This document shows, in pieces, positions 30,106 to 50,555 of a stretch of DNA of 64,000 nt (positions within the stretch are counted from its first letter, which is position 1; every line of letters starts with the position of its first letter). The DNA is from Candidatus Marinarcus sp. Lineage in GTDB: Bacteria > Campylobacterota > Campylobacteria > Campylobacterales > Arcobacteraceae. Location of the stretch: contig NZ_CP182357.1 in NCBI RefSeq assembly GCF_048571275.1, forward strand, positions 1,142,125 to 1,206,124, written 5' to 3'. A model generated the notes under the pieces. That model did not search any database and had not been told where the DNA came from. It saw only the letters and a list, made by a program, of their open reading frames with translations. The position numbers and the translations under genes are program-made.

Positions 30106-31293
30106 GTGCGAATTTTGGTCAGAGAGTTTATCAAAAAAGAGTCATCGGCGGGGCTTATCCTTATTGGTGTTACGCTCCTTGCCTTAATTTTTAAAAACTC
30201 TTTTTTGTCTGAATACTACAATAACATTTTACAAACGAATGTGACCATAAGCGTGGGTGAAATGCTTGAACTGAATAAGCCCATTTTTTTATGGATCAAT
30301 GATGGGTTAATGGCTCTGTTTTTTCTTTTAATTGGACTTGAAATTAAAAGAGAACTGCTTACGGGACATCTGTCAAGTTTTAAACAGATTGCTTTGCCGG
30401 GTTTTGCCGCTTTAGGTGGTATGCTTTTCCCTGCACTGATTTTTATATTTTTTAATTATGATAACAACTTTGCCTTGCGTGGTTGGGCGATTCCAACGGC
30501 TACGGATATTGCTTTTGCTTTGGGAATTTTGTCTTTGTTGGGTAAGCGAATTCCTGTCTCATTGAAAGTGTTTTTAATGGCATTGGCCATCATTGATGAC
30601 ATTGGTGCTATTGTGATTATATCTATTTTTTACACCTCAGAGTTGTCATATCTCTCTCTTTTATTGGCAGGTGTTTTTTTTGCCATTTTATTGCTGATGA
30701 ATAAAATCAATATTGTACGCATTACAGCATATATTATTATTGGAATATTTCTCTGGATTGCCGTTTTAAAATCGGGAGTTCATGCGACACTTGCTGGAAT
30801 TATTTTGGCATTTACCATCCCTTTAAATGTTAAAATTGAAGAACAAAAACATATCTCTCCCGCAAGAATATTGGAAAAAAATCTGCATTTTTGGGTGGCG
30901 TATTATATTTTGCCCATTTTTGCATTTATGAATGCCGGTGTGGATTTAATGAATATTGATTTTAATGATGTCATAAACCCTGTTTCAATGGGTATTATTA
31001 TGGGATTGTTTTTGGGTAAACAAATGGGGGTAATGTTGTTTGTTTTTCTGGCAGTTAAATTCAACATTGCACAGCTTCCAAAGTGTGCTACTTGGACTCA
31101 AATGTATGGCATTGCAGTATTAACAGGGATTGGATTTACCATGAGTTTTTTTATTGACTCTTTGGCGTATGATGATTCAAATATGTTTTTGCATACGGAT
31201 AAATTGGCTATTTTAGTAGGCTCAATTCTCTCTGGAATAGTAGGTTATACGATTTTACGATATGCAAAAAAGAGAAAGTTGTGTGCCATTTAA
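30106..31293 (+). CDS. nhaA: Na+/H+ antiporter NhaA
   Basis: WINDGLMALFF; GWAIPTATDIAF; AIIDD; SGVHAT; GIGFTMS. Confidence 0.96.
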   Translation: MRILVREFIKKESSAGLILIGVTLLALIFKNSFLSEYYNNILQTNVTISVGEMLELNKPIFLWINDGLMALFFLLIGLEIKRELLTGHLSSFKQIALPGFAALGGMLFPALIFIFFNYDNNFALRGWAIPTATDIAFALGILSLLGKRIPVSLKVFLMALAIIDDIGAIVIISIFYTSELSYLSLLLAGVFFAILLLMNKINIVRITAYIIIGIFLWIAVLKSGVHATLAGIILAFTIPLNVKIEEQKHISPARILEKNLHFWVAYYILPIFAFMNAGVDLMNIDFNDVINPVSMGIIMGLFLGKQMGVMLFVFLAVKFNIAQLPKCATWTQMYGIAVLTGIGFTMSFFIDSLAYDDSNMFLHTDKLAILVGSILSGIVGYTILRYAKKRKLCAI

Positions 31294-31797
31294 GGCAGAT
31301 AAATTTTCCCATTTAAGATTTTTATTTTTCCCTCTAATTCATAAACAAATGTTTTTTCAGCATAATTTTTGATGGCCTCGTCGTAGTTGGGATTGTTTTT
31401 ACAATACTCTAAAAACGCATCTTTTTCTTGGCAAAGGGTATGTCCTGATAGTTCCATAACAAACTCATCTATATCATAAATGGCTTGGGCTAAACCCTCT
31501 TTTAAAAGCTGGTTGGTTCCTGCACTTTGATTAATTTGGTGAGGCAAAACATAAATTTTTTTGTTCATATTTAAAGCAAACTCTACGCTTCTCATGCTGC
31601 CACTGTTTAAATCGGCTTGCGTTACAATTAAAATATCTCCTAAAGCTACAACGATTTCATTGCGTGCTACAAAACTCCATGGAGTTGCAAGAAAATCTGC
31701 ATCATACGCACTTAAAATCAACCCCTCTTGTTCAATGGCTGCAATGAGTTTTTTATTTGTAGCAGGGTACTTTGTATGTAAACCACAGGGACTGACC
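31290..31797 (-). pseudogene. dprA: dprA 3' fragment, separated from its 5' part by the transposon
   Basis: Reads (V)SPCGLHTKYPATNKKLIAAIEQEGLILSAY..WSFVARNEIVVALG..ADLNSGSM; joins in frame with the 50267-50537 fragment. Confidence 0.93.
31793..31797 (+). repeat. 5-bp target-site duplication TGACC (left copy)
   Basis: Identical TGACC at 50267-50271, each directly flanking the terminal TGT/ACA. Confidence 0.95.
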
Positions 31798-31843
31798 TGT
31801 CATATACAAAAACAAACTTAACTCTAAATCACAATATTTAGCC
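31798..31843 (+). repeat. tnsA-proximal transposon end with putative TnsB sites
   Basis: TGTCATAT, then ACAAAAACAAACTTAACT (31806-31823), then a degenerate copy 20 bp on (31826-31843, 11/18 match to the right-end site). Confidence 0.85.
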
Positions 31844-31942
31844 AGTCTTGAAAGATTTCCAACATTAATTAAGTTAAATAGATTATATTAAAAAGGTTAA
31901 ATAAATTGAAAAATATACAAAATAAATTAAACATCCTATCTA

Positions 31943-31971
31943 TTGTAAATCTTGACGAGATTTTATATAAT
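31943..31971 (+). promoter_or_regulatory. Putative sigma70 promoter for a leaderless tnsA transcript
   Basis: TTGTAA-17 nt-TATAAT ending 6 nt before ATG 31978; no Shine-Dalgarno in between. Confidence 0.55.
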
Positions 31972-31977
31972 TTAGAT

Positions 31978-32637
31978 ATGAGTGTAAGACAAATTAAAAA
32001 AAGCTATATATCCTGCACAGGATACTTTTCAAGTTATAAGAATAAAAAACAAGTTACTTTTGAATCAGTATTAGAAAGGGATATGTTTATGTTATTGGAG
32101 TTTGATCCAAGAGTTGTTTCATATATAGAACAACCTTTTACACTTCATTATACTTATTATGATGTAAAACCTAGAAAATATACTCCTGATTTACTGATTA
32201 CATATAAAGATAAGACTCAAACAGTAGTTGAAATAAAGTATAAAGATGAACTGCTTTCAAATCAAGAGCTTGTTCAAAAACTATCTTTAGTTCAAAATGA
32301 AATAAAATTACAAAAGCATTTATCTTTTGAAATATATACTGATGAAATGATAAATAAACAATATATGCTAAATCTAAAACATATTTATAACTTTGTAAAT
32401 ATTAAAGAAGATATAGAAAAAACAAAATTGATTGAAAAAATATTAGATAATACTGGTGCCATTACAATACAAGAAGTACTTAATCAATATGATTCAAATA
32501 AAATGAAACAAACTTTTTTTCTACCCTATATTTGGAACTACGTATTTCATAATATGGGAACACTTGTAAATCAATATGAAAAGTTAACAATGAACTCGGT
32601 TCTAAGGAAAGGATACAGACTCAATGGGAATTATTGA
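31978..32637 (+). CDS. tnsA: TnsA-like endonuclease
   Basis: MSVRQIKKSY..TG N-terminus; FESVLERD; YIEQPF; YTPDLL; VEIKY (PD-(D/E)xK). Confidence 0.88.
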   Translation: MSVRQIKKSYISCTGYFSSYKNKKQVTFESVLERDMFMLLEFDPRVVSYIEQPFTLHYTYYDVKPRKYTPDLLITYKDKTQTVVEIKYKDELLSNQELVQKLSLVQNEIKLQKHLSFEIYTDEMINKQYMLNLKHIYNFVNIKEDIEKTKLIEKILDNTGAITIQEVLNQYDSNKMKQTFFLPYIWNYVFHNMGTLVNQYEKLTMNSVLRKGYRLNGNY

Positions 32638-34480
32638 TCTTAAAATTGGCTCAAAAGTTTTTTTTAACAATGAACTGTGTGAAATAATACGTATAGTTGG
32701 TTTTAATAAAGTAACTATAGTTAAAGATAATAATGGAGATATTCTTGACGTTCCACTAACAGAGCTATCTTCAAAAAAATATCTTGAAAAACCTAAGAAC
32801 TTTATTGAACATTATTCTGAGAAAGAATGGAATATTGCTAAAGAGAGATATGAGATTATAAAAAAGATTGTCTTTACTTCAAGAACAAAAGATGAAGTTA
32901 AATCTATCGCAAAAAAAGCAGGATATAGCTCTGTAACAGTATATAAATGGATAAATCTTTATGAACAAACCATGGAAATAAGCTCTTTAGTGCCACAAAC
33001 CTCATTAAGAGGGAAAAAAGGTAGTAGATTAGATGATAAGATAGAACATATTATTAATCAAATACTTGAAGATTTATATTTAAATAAACAAAGATATGGA
33101 TTTAAAAAAATCTATAATAAAATTTATCTTGAATGTAAAAAGTTAAGCCTTACTCCTCCACATGAAAATACAATTAGAAATAGAATTGAAAAAATTGATC
33201 CCAAAAAAGCAATTAAAAAAAGATATGGACATAAAGCTTCGCAACAATTCCAAAACTATGAAGGAGAATTTCCTGAAGGTAATTATCCTTTAGAGTTTAT
33301 TCAAATAGACCATACTCCTTTAGATATTATTGTTGTAGATAAACTTCATAGAAAACCATTGAAAAGACCATATCTTACATTAGCTATTGATGTATACTCA
33401 AGAATGATTACAGGCATATATGTATCACTTCAAGAACCTGCATATTATAATGTGAGCCAATGTTTATTTAATACATTTACACCTAAAGATAAGCTGCTTA
33501 GACAATATAACGTAGAAGGAGAATGGAATATTTTTGGAGTGCCGCGTATTATTGGTGTGGACAATGGTTCTGATTTAGTTTCCTCTGATATGCAAATGGT
33601 TTGTGATGAATATGGCATTACATTGATGAAAAGACCTGTAGCTCGTCCTCAATTTGGTGCACATGTTGAAAGAGTACTTGGAACAATTAATAAAGAAATA
33701 CATAACTTAGCAGGCACTACCTTTTCAAACATAAATGAGAAAGGTGTATATGATTCAGCAAAAGAGGCTATGTTTACAGTTGAAGAACTAACACAATGGA
33801 TTATTCATTATATTGTGAATGTATATCATAAAAAATATCATCATGGGATTCAAACGACACCCGAAGAAAAATATTTTAAAGGTATATTCGGTGATGAAGA
33901 AACAGCAGGTACTGGAATTTTACCACCAATAACAGATGATATGGAAGAGTTAAGGGTATCCTTACTCCCAACAGAATTTAGAACCGTTCAAAAGGATGGT
34001 ATTACTCTTGATGGCATATCTTATTACTCTGATGTGCTGAGACATTGGATTGGTAAAAAAGATAGTAAGAAATCTAAAATTAAACACAAAATAAAACGTG
34101 ATCCACTCAATATTCAAAAAATATATTTTTATGATCCTGACTTAAAAGAATATTTTGAAGTACCTTATAGAAAAATATCTGCTCCCGTTATGACACTTTG
34201 GGACTTATATGCTTCAAAAAAATATCTTAAAGATGAAAAGATTACAGATTACAATGAAGATGATATTTTTTATGCTTACGAACAATTAGAAGAAATTTCT
34301 AAAAATATAGAGCATAAACATAAAGACCATAAACAAAGAGTTAGAAGAGAACAAAAAGGAATTATAGAAAATCAAAAAGAGCCTAAAACAGAGACTAATA
34401 CCTCTGATAATCAGTATGAAGATTTATTTACAAATATTCAACTATTCCAAGTAAATGAAAAGAGTACTCTAAATGAATAA
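32624..34480 (+). CDS. tnsB: TnsB-like DDE transposase (Mu/Tn7 type)
   Basis: N-terminal HTH (TVYKWINLY); DDE motifs IQIDHT, GVDNGSD, HVERVLGT; RTVQKDGITLDGISY. Confidence 0.92.
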   Translation: MGIIDLKIGSKVFFNNELCEIIRIVGFNKVTIVKDNNGDILDVPLTELSSKKYLEKPKNFIEHYSEKEWNIAKERYEIIKKIVFTSRTKDEVKSIAKKAGYSSVTVYKWINLYEQTMEISSLVPQTSLRGKKGSRLDDKIEHIINQILEDLYLNKQRYGFKKIYNKIYLECKKLSLTPPHENTIRNRIEKIDPKKAIKKRYGHKASQQFQNYEGEFPEGNYPLEFIQIDHTPLDIIVVDKLHRKPLKRPYLTLAIDVYSRMITGIYVSLQEPAYYNVSQCLFNTFTPKDKLLRQYNVEGEWNIFGVPRIIGVDNGSDLVSSDMQMVCDEYGITLMKRPVARPQFGAHVERVLGTINKEIHNLAGTTFSNINEKGVYDSAKEAMFTVEELTQWIIHYIVNVYHKKYHHGIQTTPEEKYFKGIFGDEETAGTGILPPITDDMEELRVSLLPTEFRTVQKDGITLDGISYYSDVLRHWIGKKDSKKSKIKHKIKRDPLNIQKIYFYDPDLKEYFEVPYRKISAPVMTLWDLYASKKYLKDEKITDYNEDDIFYAYEQLEEISKNIEHKHKDHKQRVRREQKGIIENQKEPKTETNTSDNQYEDLFTNIQLFQVNEKSTLNE

Positions 34481-35414
34481 TATTAAACTTACTAAAAAAG
34501 CACAAGAATTACTACTGCAAAGTGATGAAGAAAGAATTAAATATATTCTAGAAGATAGATGGATAAACTATCCAATAGCGCAAAATATACTTGACAAACT
34601 AGAAGATATTTTTAAGTATCAAAAAAATAAAACTAGAGTTACCAGTATGCTTGTGGTTGGATCATCAAATAATGGTAAAACTTCATTACTTGAAGAGTTT
34701 AAAAGAAGGCACTTAAATTATGAGATATTTAATGAAAAAAATGAAGATGAAACAACTAATGATTTTACCGAATTATATGATGCGACAGGAATACCAGTAC
34801 TCTATCTTCAAGCTCCAACAGAACCCAGTGAATCAAGATTATATGACAATATATTTTCATCCATTGATACGACGGTAAAGAAAAGTGAAAATATATCAAG
34901 AAAACAATATCTGGTTGAATACTATATGAAGCTATTAAATGTTGAAATGATTATAATTGATGAAATTCATAATATACTTAGTGGATCAATCGCAAAACAA
35001 AAACAAACGATGAATGCAATTAAAAATCTAAGTAATCAATTAAAGATACCAATTGTTTTAGCTGGTATAAAAGACTCATTAAGAGCGATAAGTACAGATA
35101 CTCAAATAAGTAGTAGATTTAGACCTGTATATTTAACAAAGTGGCGATTAGATAAAGAGTACATCTCTTTATTGGCAACATTTCTATCTACCTTACCACT
35201 AAAGAAAGAATCAAATATTTTAAATCCTGATGTTGCGCTAAAGATACTTGATATATCCGAAGGATACATTGGAGATATTATAGGAATTTTAAAACAATCA
35301 GCTGTTTATGCGATAAATACTCAAAGTGAAAGAATCACTATTAACGAAATAAGAGAGTGTGGATATATTTCTATGTCACAAGTACATAAAGAGAGTATTC
35401 TAAAAGATGTATGA
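34473..35414 (+). CDS. tnsC: TnsC/TniB AAA+ ATPase
   Basis: RWINYP; Walker A GSSNNGKT; Walker B IIIDEIHN; QISSRF. Confidence 0.9.
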   Translation: MNNIKLTKKAQELLLQSDEERIKYILEDRWINYPIAQNILDKLEDIFKYQKNKTRVTSMLVVGSSNNGKTSLLEEFKRRHLNYEIFNEKNEDETTNDFTELYDATGIPVLYLQAPTEPSESRLYDNIFSSIDTTVKKSENISRKQYLVEYYMKLLNVEMIIIDEIHNILSGSIAKQKQTMNAIKNLSNQLKIPIVLAGIKDSLRAISTDTQISSRFRPVYLTKWRLDKEYISLLATFLSTLPLKKESNILNPDVALKILDISEGYIGDIIGILKQSAVYAINTQSERITINEIRECGYISMSQVHKESILKDV

Positions 35415-36538
35415 TAAGACACATTGGTTTAGCAGAATTCATAGATAAAAATTTTTTAATTATTCCAAAACCATATGATAATGAATTATTAAGTTCTTGG
35501 TTTGTAAGAACGGCTTATATGCATTATATGAAGCCACAATCTTTTTTTAATATGCATTTTGGATTAAAAAATAGAGGTTATTTCATAAGTGATATCGATA
35601 CAAAATTGAGTAATGAAATTTATTCTAAAATGCAAGATAAATGTAAAAATAAAATTGATATTAACAAATTAACATTAAAATATTATGCAAAAAACATCCT
35701 AGAAGAAGGCATAAAAGATTCTACAAATCATTTTATCTCAAATATGAAGTTTTGCCCTAAATGTATAAAATTAACAAATAAAAAGTTCTATTTTAGAAAA
35801 GAATGGAAACTTGTATTTTATACTGCTTGTTTAAAACATAAATGTTATTTATACGATTCTTGTCCTCATTGCTTGAGCAAAATCTTAATTACTAAAATGT
35901 ATAAAGATAAATTACCATTTACATATTGTTATAAATGTGGTTTTGATTTAAAACAATCAAAAGTAATCCCTATAAAAAAAAGACATTTATATGGACTTGA
36001 GGCAATAAAAAAACTTTTATTTATGCTTGAGAATGGTTATATCCAGTTAAAAAATACAACAGCATATTCTTTTCATTTTTTTATTGTTTTAACTCAATTG
36101 ACTAAATTAATAATGAATAAAAGAAACTTTGTATTTTTACATACTCATCCACTATTTGAAATCATTGAACTAATAAGAAATAAAGAGTTAATAACAAACA
36201 AATCTATATATCTTCAATTAGCTATAAATGAAAAGTATGCCTTATTCGGCTTACTTATGAATATATTTGAAAACTATCCTAATAACTTATCTAAGTTTAT
36301 TTTATCAAATAAACTAACCCATTGGGATATGGTGAGAGAGATTAAGTATTTACCATTTTGGTACAATGAAATAGTAAATGACATTATTCCTAGATATATG
36401 GCGTTTGGAGATATGGTTACTGAAATTGAAATTGAGAATGCAAAAAAGTATTTATTATCTCAAAATTTAGAAATCACTAAAGCCAATTTATCAAGGTTAT
36501 TTGGGCGTACGAATTATTTTAATAAGTACATTTTGTAA
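35411..36538 (+). CDS. tniQ: TniQ/TnsD-family target selector with C-terminal extension
   Basis: PKPYDNELLSSWFVR; zinc motifs FCPKC, RKEW..ACLKH..DSCPHC, YCYKCGFDL; ~190-aa C-terminal tail. Confidence 0.88.
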   Translation: MIRHIGLAEFIDKNFLIIPKPYDNELLSSWFVRTAYMHYMKPQSFFNMHFGLKNRGYFISDIDTKLSNEIYSKMQDKCKNKIDINKLTLKYYAKNILEEGIKDSTNHFISNMKFCPKCIKLTNKKFYFRKEWKLVFYTACLKHKCYLYDSCPHCLSKILITKMYKDKLPFTYCYKCGFDLKQSKVIPIKKRHLYGLEAIKKLLFMLENGYIQLKNTTAYSFHFFIVLTQLTKLIMNKRNFVFLHTHPLFEIIELIRNKELITNKSIYLQLAINEKYALFGLLMNIFENYPNNLSKFILSNKLTHWDMVREIKYLPFWYNEIVNDIIPRYMAFGDMVTEIEIENAKKYLLSQNLEITKANLSRLFGRTNYFNKYIL

Positions 36539-36664
36539 TCTTAAAATTGTTTTCTAAAAATTTTATATATGCTATTTATAGGAATCTCCTTTTAATAAAA
36601 AAACAACATTATTTAACATATAATACATTTTAGTGATTTTTCAATTCCAAGGCAAAGGCAATTT

Positions 36665-36946
36665 ATGTTAAATAAAGACACCTTAATTAGTTTAACTACT
36701 AAGCACAACTTGAATATTATTTTTAAAAACACTTCTTTTGAAATTATTACTCCTGTTAATTATCTTTTTTATGATGGGAAAAAAAGTAAAGAATATGTCT
36801 ATGAAAACTTTTTAGTTAATACCTTAAAAGATGGAAAGCAAAATGCTATTATATATGCCTATTTTGAGATAAAGAATAATGCAACTATCAATTTAAAGGA
36901 TAAAAAGTTTGAAGCTCCTCAGTGTAATTCTACTATTAATTGTTAA
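36665..36946 (+). CDS. Small hypothetical protein
   Basis: 93-aa ORF with AAGG upstream; 3' end overlaps the DNase start by 38 nt. Confidence 0.45.
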   Translation: MLNKDTLISLTTKHNLNIIFKNTSFEIITPVNYLFYDGKKSKEYVYENFLVNTLKDGKQNAIIYAYFEIKNNATINLKDKKFEAPQCNSTINC

Positions 36947-37652
36947 TCTTTCATTTGCCAATGAAACTATTGATTCTTTCTCTCAGTCCAAAAAACTATT
37001 AAGAAATATTTATAAAGACCATCAAGTTACTTTTTATGCCAATTGTAAATATAACTACAAAGATAAAAACAATATGATTGATAAAAGTTCATGTGGATAT
37101 GTTCCTCGAAATACTTATACTAAATCAGGGAAAAAAAATATAAGAGCCAATCGAATTGAATGGGAACATATCATTCCTGCAGAAAACTTTGGAAGACAAT
37201 TTGTTTGTTGGAGAGAAGGAGATGAACAATGTATTGATTCTAAAGGCAAAGCCTACAAAGGACGAAAGTGTTGTTCTAAGGTAAATCAACAGTTTAAATA
37301 TATGGAAGCTGATATGCATAACCTGGTACCTGCTATTGGTGAATTAAATGCTGATAGGTCAAACTTTAAATATGGGATGATTGAAGGTGAAGATAGAGCT
37401 TATGGTAAAGATGTAGATTTTGAAGTAGATTTTAAAAATAAACGAGCTGAACCAAAAGAAGACATCAGAGGGAATATTGCACGAACTTACTTTTACTTTG
37501 AAGGGAGGTATGGAATGAAAATATCCAAAAAAGAGAAACAACTGTTTGAAGCTTGGAATAAACTTGACCCTGTTGATGATTGGGAGATTGAGAGAAATAA
37601 GAGGATTGAAAAGCTTCAAGGGAATGGAAATAATTTTATAAAGGAAAGTTAA
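36909..37652 (+). CDS. Exported endonuclease I (EndA/Dns family DNase)
   Basis: AAGGA RBS plus TTG start; signal peptide MKLLSVILLLIVNLSFA; RIEWEHIIPAENFG; MEADMHNLVPAIGELNADRSN; conserved Cys pattern. Confidence 0.92.
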   Translation: MKLLSVILLLIVNLSFANETIDSFSQSKKLLRNIYKDHQVTFYANCKYNYKDKNNMIDKSSCGYVPRNTYTKSGKKNIRANRIEWEHIIPAENFGRQFVCWREGDEQCIDSKGKAYKGRKCCSKVNQQFKYMEADMHNLVPAIGELNADRSNFKYGMIEGEDRAYGKDVDFEVDFKNKRAEPKEDIRGNIARTYFYFEGRYGMKISKKEKQLFEAWNKLDPVDDWEIERNKRIEKLQGNGNNFIKES

Positions 37653-38305
37653 TGTTTTGGAAAAAATATAAATATGATGATATTAAGTCTGTTGAATTCA
37701 ATGAATTAAAAAAGAGAATTAAAATTGTAGTTATTGATGATGAAGAAGATAGTTTCCCAATTAAACACATGCAATCACTTGGGTTTACAATTGAATATTG
37801 GAAAGAAATTGACATCAATAACATTAAAAGATTAGAAGATGGGAATTTTGATCTTATTATTCTTGATATATATGGGGTAGTTAATCCTCAATTAGGTCAG
37901 GATTTAACAGGTTTGGATATCTTAAAATCATTGAAGCATAGAAATCCTAAACAACTCATAATCGCTTTTTCTGGTAGTAGCTACGAAATAGATAAGGGAG
38001 AATTTTGGAAATTAGCTGATGATTTCTTGAAAAAACCTTCAACAACTTTTGAGACTAAGGAAAGATTAGAAAATATTATAAATCAAAATTATTCTATAAA
38101 TACTCTTATCAATAATCTAAAAATGGTTATTTCGAGACAAATACAAGATTCTAATAAGGAAAGTGATATAGAAAAAATTATTTCAAAGGCAATTATTACT
38201 AAAAATGGAAATATAGATTTTGTCAAACTTGTAAGGCTTGGTGTTCAAGATACAGCTGCAATTACAACAATTGTTACAACAATAATCAATATTATGAAAG
38301 AATAG
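37652..38305 (+). CDS. Receiver-domain protein without a recognisable DNA-binding output
   Basis: VVIDDE; LIILDIYG (phospho-Asp); IAFSG; FLKKP. Confidence 0.75.
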   Translation: MFWKKYKYDDIKSVEFNELKKRIKIVVIDDEEDSFPIKHMQSLGFTIEYWKEIDINNIKRLEDGNFDLIILDIYGVVNPQLGQDLTGLDILKSLKHRNPKQLIIAFSGSSYEIDKGEFWKLADDFLKKPSTTFETKERLENIINQNYSINTLINNLKMVISRQIQDSNKESDIEKIISKAIITKNGNIDFVKLVRLGVQDTAAITTIVTTIINIMKE

Positions 38306-38315
38306 GTTTAAAAAA

Positions 38316-39401
38316 ATGGATACAAATAATTTTAAAATATTACTTGAAACAACATTATTCCCTTTGATGGATTTTAAAAAAAATCAGTACGATGGATTAA
38401 TGCTTAACATACACCCTTATTGCAAATCTTGCGATAAAGAATGTTTAATAAAAGGGCAAGGAAAAGATTATAAAGTTTCACTTTGTTCTGACAATATATT
38501 ATTTTTTAAAATTTCTATTAACAATAGAAGTTTTATAATTCATAGTCTTCGAAATGATTATTCAATACTTAATAGACAAGATAAAAAAAAATATCCCAAT
38601 AAGATTTTTTTTAAGCATATTGAAAAAGTTAAAAAATGGGTTGATAAAATTGAAGAAATAATTCAGTTAGATACAAAAAAGAAAAATATTATAAACTTAA
38701 ATAATTCTGTCTTTATTCATGATATGAAAAAAGTTTATTCAACAATTCTGAGAAGAATGGAAGATTATATAAGTGAAAATTCTACTTCCTCTTATCATTA
38801 TGATGAAAATTTAAGATTTCTTGATACAAATTTATTATGTATATATAAAGCAATTAATTTGCTTGATTATCAATTTAATAATGTAAACTATATTTCAAAT
38901 CCAAATGCCGTACAATATGGACAATTACGTGAAACTCATATATATAAAGCAATTGATAAACTTAACAGAATTTTGAGAACTAATTCTAAAATTAAAATTG
39001 AATTAAAAGGTACTTCCCATAATCAATTATTTTTATATGAGAGTTTTATAAGTTTGCCCTTTATTTTAATTGATAATGCTCTTAAATATTCATTAAAAGA
39101 TCAAAGTATCGAAATTCATATCAATGACTTAGATGATAAAGTATTAATAGAAATTATTTCTTTTAGCCCAAAAATAAATAGTGAAGACAAAAAACATATT
39201 TTTGAAAAATTTCAAAGAGGAGATAATGTTTGTACTCTTGTTCCAGAGGGGCAAGGTATCGGATTATATTTAGCAAAAGTTATTGCTGATGCTCATAATA
39301 TTGAAATTAAATTGGAAGAAAAAAATGGTACAACAACAACGATAGATGACGTTTTATATTGTGAAAATATTTTTAAATTTATCGTACAATCTCTCCAATA
39401 A
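38316..39401 (+). CDS. Soluble histidine kinase / HATPase_c protein
   Basis: FIHD (candidate H-box); LIDNALKYS (N); FQRG (F); GQGIGLYLAK (G2); no TM segment; Cys-rich N-terminus CKSCDKEC. Confidence 0.78.
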   Translation: MDTNNFKILLETTLFPLMDFKKNQYDGLMLNIHPYCKSCDKECLIKGQGKDYKVSLCSDNILFFKISINNRSFIIHSLRNDYSILNRQDKKKYPNKIFFKHIEKVKKWVDKIEEIIQLDTKKKNIINLNNSVFIHDMKKVYSTILRRMEDYISENSTSSYHYDENLRFLDTNLLCIYKAINLLDYQFNNVNYISNPNAVQYGQLRETHIYKAIDKLNRILRTNSKIKIELKGTSHNQLFLYESFISLPFILIDNALKYSLKDQSIEIHINDLDDKVLIEIISFSPKINSEDKKHIFEKFQRGDNVCTLVPEGQGIGLYLAKVIADAHNIEIKLEEKNGTTTTIDDVLYCENIFKFIVQSLQ

Positions 39402-39538
39402 TATTGACTATAAAAAGAGTTGATGGAATATAAATAAAGCAAATTATTAGGAGAGTTATAAATTTAAATGTCTTCTAAAAAGTAGACACAAATTCATTTA
39501 GTTTACCTTATATCAATAGATGATATTTAGATATAATT

Positions 39539-39580
39539 GGCATTATCTATTAAATATTTGCATCTTTTATTGAGAATTAC
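39539..39580 (+). repeat. Internal 42-bp repeat, copy A
   Basis: GGCATTATCTATTAAATATTTGCATCTTTTATTGAGAATTAC; 35/42 identical to copy B. Confidence 0.8.
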
Positions 39581-39652
39581 AGTAGTGACGACAACCTCTC
39601 CAGCAAATTTAGAGAATTTTTTATTTTTTTATCCATAACATTTCCTATGAGT

Positions 39653-39679
39653 AAAAAAGCAGAGGATATTTCCTCCTCT
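39653..39679 (-). terminator. Possible intrinsic terminator after the small Cys/His protein
   Basis: Minus strand AGAGGA-GGAAATA-TCCTCT-GC-TTTTTT. Confidence 0.45.
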
Positions 39680-39693
39680 ACTTAAATTTATCA

Positions 39694-39912
39694 TTAACTT
39701 GTATGACATGATGGACAACAATAGTAACAACCATTGATTCTGTTGTTAGGCCATCTTCTCTTAGCCTCATTGATTGCATCATGGCAGCTATTATGGTAAC
39801 CTAAATCAACTTGATTTTCTGGATTTGGCATGTAGCTACAACCTGTTGTTGCATTATGAACTTCATGATCACCATTGTTTTGTTGGTTTTTATTAATTAC
39901 AAACTTTGCCAT
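39694..39912 (-). CDS. Small Cys/His-rich, probably metal-binding, protein
   Basis: 72 aa: NKNQQNNGDHEVH..GC..P..N..LG..SC..A..NGCYYCCPSCHT, a pattern I recognise from mobile-element hypothetical proteins. Confidence 0.75.
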   Translation of the reverse strand: MAKFVINKNQQNNGDHEVHNATTGCSYMPNPENQVDLGYHNSCHDAINEAKRRWPNNRINGCYYCCPSCHTS

Positions 39913-39915
39913 TTA

Positions 39916-40134
39916 TTAGCCTTTCACATTTCTTGGGTCATTGCCATAAGAATTTTTCTCACGAATTTGACCATTTTGACCATGAAGTGTAAATTCAGCA
40001 TTTAACTTTTTTGCTAAACTAATCCCATATTCTCTACATTCAACTTGTGTCGAACATACTTTACTAGCTCTTTCATTGCCAGCAACTTTTGCTTTCCATC
40101 CATCAGGATGCTTTGAAACAGATACTCTGTTCAT
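39916..40134 (-). CDS. DUF2188-family protein
   Basis: HPDGWKAKVAGNERAS..TQ; LHGQNGQIREKNSYGNDP. Confidence 0.8.
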   Translation of the reverse strand: MNRVSVSKHPDGWKAKVAGNERASKVCSTQVECREYGISLAKKLNAEFTLHGQNGQIREKNSYGNDPRNVKG

Positions 40135-40290
40135 ATTAGTTCCTTATATTTAATAAATGTAACTAATCGAAACAAAATCACTTACTTTATTAAGAGTTAT
40201 GTATTGATTTTAATAATAACTTAATAGATTTAGTATAATTCTGTGTAACTTTCTAATAGCACATTAATCGTAACACAATGTGTCAACAAT

Positions 40291-40371
40291 CTTAAATTTT
40301 ATATATTTTAAGCGGCAACTTTTATATATAAAATTTAAGTAACTTATAATTGGCACTCAATTGTGCCAATT
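40291..40371. repeat. Cluster of inverted repeats downstream of jetD
   Basis: 16-bp perfect IR CTTAAATTTTATATAT (40291-40306 / 40324-40339, 17-nt spacer) and AATTGGCAC-N6-GTGCCAATT (40348-40371). Confidence 0.8.
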
Positions 40372-40490
40372 GCCAGAGTAATTATATAACTTTAGTCAGG
40401 CTTTGTCAAGTGAATTATGCTAAAAATGTAAAAATTATGTAAATAGGAAAATAATGATTTTCTGGGCTTAGTCTAAAACAAAATTACTTT

Positions 40491-40532
40491 AGCATTATTT
40501 ATTGCATATTTGTATCTTTTATTGAAAATGAC
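40491..40532 (+). repeat. Internal 42-bp repeat, copy B
   Basis: AGCATTATTTATTGCATATTTGTATCTTTTATTGAAAATGAC; 7 nt from the jetD stop. Confidence 0.8.
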
Positions 40533-40539
40533 ATTTATT

Positions 40540-50220: not shown

Positions 50221-50266
50221 AGTTAAGTTTTTTGTTGTTGAGTTAAGTTTTTTGTTGTATATGACA
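50221..50266 (-). repeat. tnsE-proximal transposon end with two tandem TnsB sites
   Basis: AGTTAAGTTTTTTGTTGT at 50221-50238 and 50241-50258 (20-bp period), then ATATGACA. Confidence 0.92.
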
Positions 50267-50271
50267 TGACC
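50267..50271 (+). repeat. 5-bp target-site duplication TGACC (right copy)
   Basis: Matches 31793-31797. Confidence 0.95.
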
Positions 50272-50537
50272 ATAATGGTGTTGTTTGCACCTGCTGCTTG
50301 ATGTGCAATGGCATCCACGCCAAGTGCTCCCCCACTTACAATGCAAAAACCTGCAGAGGACAATTTGTTTGCGATGGTATGGGTGAAAATTTTTGTACTG
50401 GGAAAAGGATGTCTGGTGCCCACAATGGAGACTTTGGGTTTTTCTAAAAGTTGCGTATTTCCAATATAAAAGAGTTTTTCGGGATATTTTTGCATCACAT
50501 CAAGTGCATTTACATGAAAATCTAAACTCTGAATCAT
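50267..50537 (-). pseudogene. dprA: dprA 5' fragment
   Basis: YPEKLFYIGN; KVSIVGTR; IVSGGALGVDAIAHQAA; NTIMV; after the junction the frame continues into the transposon end and stops at 50223. Confidence 0.93.
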
Positions 50538-50555
50538 TGTCATCCTTTGGTAACA

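Follow-up and report, generated by a model that had tools for sequence, protein, structure and literature searches.

A Tn7-like element within dprA

The window, i.e. the whole stretch of 64,000 nucleotides that was analysed, carries a Tn7-like element of 18,469 bp (31798-50266) with the termini TGT...ACA and with the 5-bp duplication TGACC on either side. The element interrupts dprA, whose halves rejoined to a gene of ∼260 codons when the element was excised in silico, and no intact or second dprA was found elsewhere in the genome. The tniQ gene adjoins tnsC in the operon tnsA-tnsB-tnsC-tniQ (31906-36538), and a tnsE homologue is located at the opposite end of the element (Table 1). This tnsE-proximal end has two abutting TnsB-type sites, as does the right end of Tn7 (PMC11406308), and the sites of the tnsA end are spaced apart.

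Table 1. Features of the element, of its tniQ gene and of the interrupted dprA gene (positions in the window)
Feature	Position	Strand	Description or basis
dprA 3' fragment	31290..31797	-	PF02481 profile positions 130-210
Target-site duplication, copy 1	31793..31797		TGACC
tnsA-proximal (conventional right) terminus	31798..31823	+	Terminal TnsB-type site, 1 mismatch to motif
tnsA	31906..32637	+	PF08722, E 3.5e-13
tnsB	32624..34480	+	Mu-transpos_C and rve domains
tnsC	34473..35414	+	TniB-type AAA+ ATPase; PF05621, E 2.2e-59
tniQ	35411..36538	+	375 aa; candidate chromosomal target selector; PF06527, AF2 model, whole-length alignment to TniQ/TnsD structures
Two zinc-ribbon quartets of TniQ (C115 to C176)	35753..35938	+	Ligands invariant in homologues
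TniQ residues ∼186-320	35966..36370	+	Helical linker and second helical domain (Hel2); common TniQ/TnsD core
TniQ C-terminal module, ∼55 residues	36371..36535	+	HTH-like; candidate specificity element; helices 338-350, 357-364 and 369-372
tnsE homologue, 549-550 aa	48560..50212	-	Model match to TnsE C-terminal domain; left-end conservation in relatives
tnsE-proximal (conventional left) terminus	50221..50266	-	Two abutting 20-bp TnsB-type sites
Target-site duplication, copy 2	50267..50271		TGACC
dprA 5' fragment, codons 1-92	50267..50543	-	PF02481 profile positions 20-111
Predicted TniQ recognition DNA	50290..50330		Codons of GGAxGVDAIAH motif in the dprA 5' fragment; predicted from sister clades and Tn7 TnsD spacing

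The tniQ reading frame is open throughout, and ITKANLSRLFGR represents residues 355-366 of its product, near the C-terminal end. The 375-aa protein belongs to the TniQ/TnsD family and matched PF06527 (TniQ) over residues 17-147 with an E of 4.3e-19 and 70 bits (Pfam cut-off 27), and all eight zinc ligands (C115, C118, C140 and H143 of one ribbon, C151, C154, C173 and C176 of the other) were invariant in an alignment of 42 family members; ∼200 residues follow the last zinc-ribbon cysteine. No match to PF15978 (TnsD) was obtained with the whole protein at E 0.01 or with its tail at E 10, and in a phmmer search against solved structures the match was confined to the zinc-ribbon region. Searching the whole 2.58-Mb genome revealed this one TniQ gene, confirming the original observation of a single TniQ. 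The accompanying claim that the element encodes no Cas protein, CRISPR array or tyrosine-recombinase-like TnsF was likewise upheld: none of the element ORFs of at least 80 aa matched a Cas or tyrosine-recombinase family, and neither a repeat array nor an Rfam match was detected within the element. About 40 homologues of TniQ were collected, all of 370-386 aa and with conservation spanning the full length, and relatives were present in 43 of the 401 genomes of the order Campylobacterales. The description of the protein as having a ‘long C-terminal tail’ was overstated, 375 aa being a normal length for a core-only TniQ.

The ORF at 48560-50212 starts 55 bp inside the left end, is co-directional with the dprA 5' fragment and, as judged by structural modelling, encodes a TnsE homologue. 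In the AF2 model of this protein (pLDDT 71), residues 391-546 matched the C-terminal domain of TnsE. Comparison with 9d5l_A gave a Z of 12.8 with 146/157 residues aligned, model residues 391-544 pairing with 385-537 of the chain and thus occupying the same place in the residue numbering; 5d16 followed with a Z of 11.8, and the next fold dropped to a Z of 6. Pfam TnsE_C (PF18623) did not match the window's protein and reached E 0.036 in one of 14 homologues, and an ESM Atlas feature search with the same protein (ORF550) gave no usable match. A tnsE homologue convergent with tniQ and 8-30 kb away from it was observed in 25 of the 401 genomes, and its place at the left end is kept in relatives. 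The truncated dprA frame (50209-50543) continues across the end of the element to a stop at 50223. The ATG of tnsE follows after ∼11 nt and has GGAG ahead of it, so that transcription of tnsE could start from the dprA promoter.

The cargo of the element consists of an endonuclease I gene, a response-regulator and kinase pair and a ParB-JetABCD Wadjet operon. The endonuclease I (36909-37652) is of the secreted type, and the response-regulator/histidine-kinase pair (37652-39401) resembles the PADLOC candidate defence system PDC-M43 (E 1.8e-10 and 8.5e-21). In the relative from genome G003, the cargo contains a non-specific endonuclease and a CoiA-like gene (L004:11669-14348). Considering the nucleases and Wadjet along with the disruption of dprA, the cargo seems to be directed against incoming DNA. 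Several relatives (L004:3283-6546; G173 contig 16, 4714-7680; L060) carry 1.6-3.3 kb of extra genes (DUF2971, NERD-like and unknowns) between the terminus and tnsA.

Insertion sites and TniQ clades of related elements

In order to compare insertion sites, relatives were taken from species-representative genomes. Ten related elements from several families of the order were inserted in dprA, all in a single orientation and with the tnsE-proximal end facing the dprA 5' part in 10/10 cases. Both junctions together with matching 5-bp duplications were obtained for eight of these (the window element and those of G001, G256, G202, G002, G003, G173 and G270), and for the elements of G034 and G337 the dprA junction was seen on the tnsA side only. 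The insertions occupy two sites that are 105 bp apart. Site A, located between the codons of GGAxGxDxxAH and those of YPxxN, is used by six elements (window, G001, G034, G337, G202 and G256), all of them within 3 bp, and site B, between the codons of IVGxR and SGGAxGxD, is used at exactly the same nucleotide by the remaining four (G002, G003, G173 and G270). The hosts of the window element and of the G173 element are congeneric, and the two elements occupy different dprA sites (A and B, respectively). Insertion is thus recurrent across hosts, specific in site and orientation, and adjacent to a conserved gene motif at two dprA positions. The proposal that dprA is a programmed target was therefore borne out by comparison, and the insertions support such a role of dprA for this family of Tn7-like elements. 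We found no published report of dprA as a Tn7-like attachment site; it is absent from the main text of Faure et al. (2023; PMC10293859) and of Benler (2021).

The G202 element has TCT instead of TGT at its tnsE-proximal terminus (L090, around 4300) along with an intact duplication, GTTTC, and this copy may now be immobile. Three relatives (G001, L015:1220-3651; G002, L017:7749-10248; G300, L093:84-2467) carry, inside the element and directly after the left-end tnsE homologue, a full-length dprA that is co-directional with the broken host gene. The element-borne dprA of G001 shows 50% identity to the host dprA and has DTISH replacing DAIAH in the GxDxxAH motif; such a gene is absent from the window element and from those of G256 and G202. 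The element-borne dprA has the appearance of a replacement gene of foreign origin, lying where transcription from the host dprA promoter enters the element.

Sister elements were mapped in other genes. Those associated with argJ (L087-L088 and L092) are inserted one base past the argJ stop codon, and those in mnmG (L098-L102) four codons before the stop, at the same codon in five genomes; it is the tnsE-proximal end that abuts in both cases. The argJ element of G292 was left out, as its tnsA-side junction showed no matching duplication, probably owing to a rearrangement or to tandem elements. Among the top-ranked results of a literature search, none paired Tn7-like elements with mnmG, argJ or gidA. 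TniQ and TnsB trees were computed by quick IQ-TREE searches, with SH-aLRT as the only support measure. In the TniQ tree, the site-A elements formed one clade (SH-aLRT 97), and the elements of site A, site B and argJ together formed another (99); the mnmG elements, at ∼30% identity, were a separate clade (100), and the comM elements fell outside. The insertion site thus tracks the TniQ clade, and neither the host taxonomy nor the TnsB/TnsC backbone.

The TniQ of the G270 element (L056 and L094) groups with site B, where the element is inserted, and is among the most distant of the clade from the window's TniQ, with only 38% identity; the TnsB and TnsC of this element are the closest of all to those of the window (67% and 63%), and in the TnsB tree it nests among site-A backbones (supports of 99 and 95). 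As compared at the sequence level, G270 is a natural swap in which TniQ and the site have been exchanged together on a site-A-type TnsB/TnsC backbone. Since the G270 TnsB nests in site A, and TniQ and the insertion site are both of type B, the site followed TniQ and not the transposase. A mosaic breakpoint within the swapped TniQ was sought by sliding-window comparison and none was detected, so that the whole tniQ gene was exchanged. Furthermore, the genes common to the elements are tnsA, tnsB, tnsC, tniQ and the left-end tnsE homologue only, and the gene 3' of tniQ is a different cargo gene in every relative.

Fold of TniQ and its C-terminal module

An AF2 model of TniQ built on the family alignment (pLDDT 86.8, pTM 0.82) revealed the common core fold of a helical domain, zinc finger, linker and second helical domain. 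Over the whole length, the structures that matched best were the CRISPR-associated TniQs 9gs9_J, 6v9p and 8fcu_P (Z 13-14.5). Model residues 13-375 matched residues 1-380 of the full-length I-F3 TniQ 6v9p with a Z of 13.0 over 281 aligned residues, and the I-F3 TniQ 9gs9_J with a Z of 14.0 and an rmsd of 3.8. TnsD in the TnsD-TnsC-DNA complex (8v32_J) gave a Z of 13.7, and residues 15-320 of the model corresponded to residues 1-310 of the E. coli TnsD(1-318) chain 8glu_X (Z 9.6). The common core of TniQ and TnsD comprises roughly 300 residues (Faure et al., 2023; PMC10293859). As the model aligns with TnsD(1-318) and its fold is the core described by these authors, most of the presumed tail is ordinary core. 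On the basis of the model, residues 13-320 are the ordinary TniQ/TnsD core, with ∼55 residues (321-375) beyond it. The reading of ∼190 residues as an extra tail was not supported, because residues 186-320 align to the standard core (Hel2), that of CRISPR-associated TniQs included. CRISPR-associated TniQs with the same core fold bind proteins and not DNA. Possession of the core fold does not by itself indicate a DNA reader, for this reason.

Residues 321-375 form three short helices, for which the match to sigma region 4 was weak (Z 3.3). Short matches to Atlas structures pointed to the HTH_11, HTH_8, KfrA_N and FluMu_N families, and an Atlas lead to the TnsD family scored 0.83, which is under the level that counts. 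The Pfam HTH search of the tail gave HTH_18 as its best result, with an E of 0.062 that is far below the cut-off, and the same search with three relatives gave nothing. From the model, we infer a three-helix, HTH-like module with a candidate role in specificity. The ratio of between-clade to within-clade divergence in TniQ peaks at residues 241-375.

Selection of the target within dprA

As the site tracks the TniQ clade even against the backbone, and as there is no other conserved candidate gene, TniQ is the best candidate for the selector. Comparison of the sequences makes it probable that a conserved part of dprA is selected, in a sequence-specific manner, by the 375-aa TniQ that the element itself encodes. 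Of the original proposal of a compact TnsD-like selector, the selector role is thus favoured by comparison, and the ∼190-residue tail as reader domain was not supported, as it is mostly ordinary core. According to the model that we propose, TniQ would be composed of the core (first helical domain, two zinc ribbons, linker and second helical domain, ∼320 residues) and of the ∼55-residue three-helix module. Direct DNA binding by TniQ is suggested by analogy with TnsD of Tn7, and TniQ would accordingly contact a conserved part of the dprA coding sequence that is separated from the insertion point by a few helical turns. The core of TniQ would recruit the TnsC ATPase, upon which TnsA and TnsB would carry out the insertion in a single orientation and at a constant distance. 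The TnsE homologue would serve a separate, sequence-independent route and would be dispensable for homing to dprA.

In the argJ and mnmG clades, conserved coding DNA is present only in the flank adjoining the tnsE-proximal end, and the mnmG flanks of two genomes beyond the tnsA-proximal end had nothing in common after the last four codons. By homology with these clades, the recognition DNA would lie in the dprA 5' fragment. If the spacing resembles that of Tn7 TnsD, which recognizes positions +23 to +58 (PMC12372198), the recognition site of the window TniQ would be located on the tnsE-proximal side, at about 50290-50330. Per-nucleotide conservation of dprA, determined for both flanks of sites A and B with cross-controls, tracked the protein conservation and did not separate the flanks.

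With regard to the part of TniQ that makes the contact, the N-terminal helical domain and the zinc ribbons might read dprA, leaving the C-terminal module for TnsC contact or dimerisation. We consider this rather unlikely, even though TniQ residues 79-136 also discriminate the clades, separating site A from site B as well as residues 336-375 do, and the equivalent C-terminal part of the I-F3 TniQ contacts Cascade proteins. Residues 1-318 of TnsD do bind DNA, though without specificity; the specificity of Tn7 TnsD resides in its C-terminal region and is abolished by the loss of ten C-terminal residues (PMC12372198). In the present family, the last TniQ helix differs by target clade, which likewise speaks against an N-terminal reader.

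Alternatively, TniQ could be an adaptor only, connecting TnsC to a separate reader of dprA, either a host protein or the product of a poorly conserved element gene acting in trans. Short partnerless TniQs of similar size have been regarded as too short to select targets, with selectors suggested to act in trans, and the 369-aa TniQ of Tn6022 depends on TnsF (Faure et al., 2023; PMC10293859). Even the TnsD of Tn7 uses the host factors ACP and uL29 (PMC12372198), and the TniQ described here has just ∼55 residues beyond its core, with an HTH assignment that is weak by structure and by profile. A host reader, however, fails to explain why congeneric hosts have different dprA sites, each matching the TniQ clade, and why the site changed with TniQ on the site-A-like backbone of G270. 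The elements also have no further gene in common. An adaptor role alone is therefore improbable, and selection by TniQ itself accounts better for the distribution of the sites. It is very improbable that insertion is directed by the TnsE homologue, acting by itself or through TniQ as adaptor, and that dprA was chosen for structural or replication-related reasons: the homologue, which many relatives have conserved, sits at the end abutting the dprA 5' fragment, but known TnsE targeting is sequence-independent (PMC11406308), in contrast to the use of the same nucleotide in unrelated hosts; the G034 and G337 elements are in dprA site A and yet have no TnsE-like gene at E 1e-10 or better; and among the relatives that bear TnsE, four other targets are in use, in keeping with the TniQ clade. 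The TnsE homologue is thus not the dprA selector, since it is missing in G034 and G337 and present with all the other targets, and the contrary expectation of a TniQ that merely adapts to TnsE, with untargeted insertion, was at variance with the same-nucleotide insertions and with these two elements.

The TniQ selector proposed here shares with Tn7 TnsD the family, the core fold, the gene position after tnsC and the presence of the second-pathway gene tnsE, as well as insertion that is orientation-specific, keeps a constant distance to a conserved coding motif and generates a 5-bp duplication. TnsD of Tn7 differs in its size of 508 aa and in its C-terminal region of ∼190 aa with several HTH domains, whereas the protein of 375 aa has one small helical module and no PF15978. 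Furthermore, unlike in Tn7, the target lies inside a gene, dprA being inactivated, and in the argJ and mnmG sister clades the recognized gene body adjoins the end remote from tnsA, opposite to the arrangement in Tn7. Tn6022/AbaR elements (TniQ of 369 aa plus TnsF; PMC10293859) are similar in TniQ size, in the inactivation of a natural-transformation gene (sister clades of the present family being located in comM) and in the layout described for Tn6022, with a remote tnsE near the left end on the opposite strand (PMC10293859). In Tn6022, TnsF is the reader of comM (PMC10293859); here, in contrast, the target is dprA and selection seems to rest on TniQ itself. No TnsF (∼500 aa, with zinc fingers and XerH-like domains) was found in the element or in the sequenced parts of the dprA, argJ and mnmG relatives. 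The CRISPR-associated TniQs (I-F3 and I-B) are of similar length and include the best whole-length structural matches, but the present element has neither cas genes nor a CRISPR array, and its target is set by the protein clade and not by a guide RNA.

According to surveys, a TniQ without a long C-terminal region needs a partner, such as a Cas effector or TnsF, and elements with a short TniQ and no partner have been left unexplained. The link between clade and site, the congeneric pair and the natural swap, all read from genome comparison, argue that the short TniQ itself decides the site here. More tentatively, and with somewhat more doubt than confidence, the core-only TniQ of ∼375 aa may be viewed as a self-sufficient, retargetable DNA reader, which would have been directed to the two dprA sites and argJ (38-50% identity) and to mnmG and comM (26-34%), would be exchangeable between backbones and would read the side far from tnsA, the reverse of Tn7, and some elements would make up for the damage by carrying a foreign dprA after tnsE, where transcription enters from the host dprA promoter. 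With small related proteins, at least five exactly mapped targets and one natural backbone swap, the family is a tractable case. The DNA-reading residues are directly testable by chimeras, since close relatives have distinct mapped targets, and the family offers a compact module for protein-guided insertion. Along with comM, dprA would be a transformation gene that is inactivated on purpose by Tn7-like elements.

In one comM-inserted relative (L005:6593-10096), tniQ is immediately followed by a SinI restriction-modification pair, and the 3 kb available contain no TnsF-like gene. Close relatives were also sought on plasmids, and none was present there at 38% identity or more. A comM-clade element (L077, G087 contig 2) exists in nearly identical copies on the chromosome, where it is inserted in comM, and on a 102-kb plasmid, and these two copies fit a plasmid route of spread.
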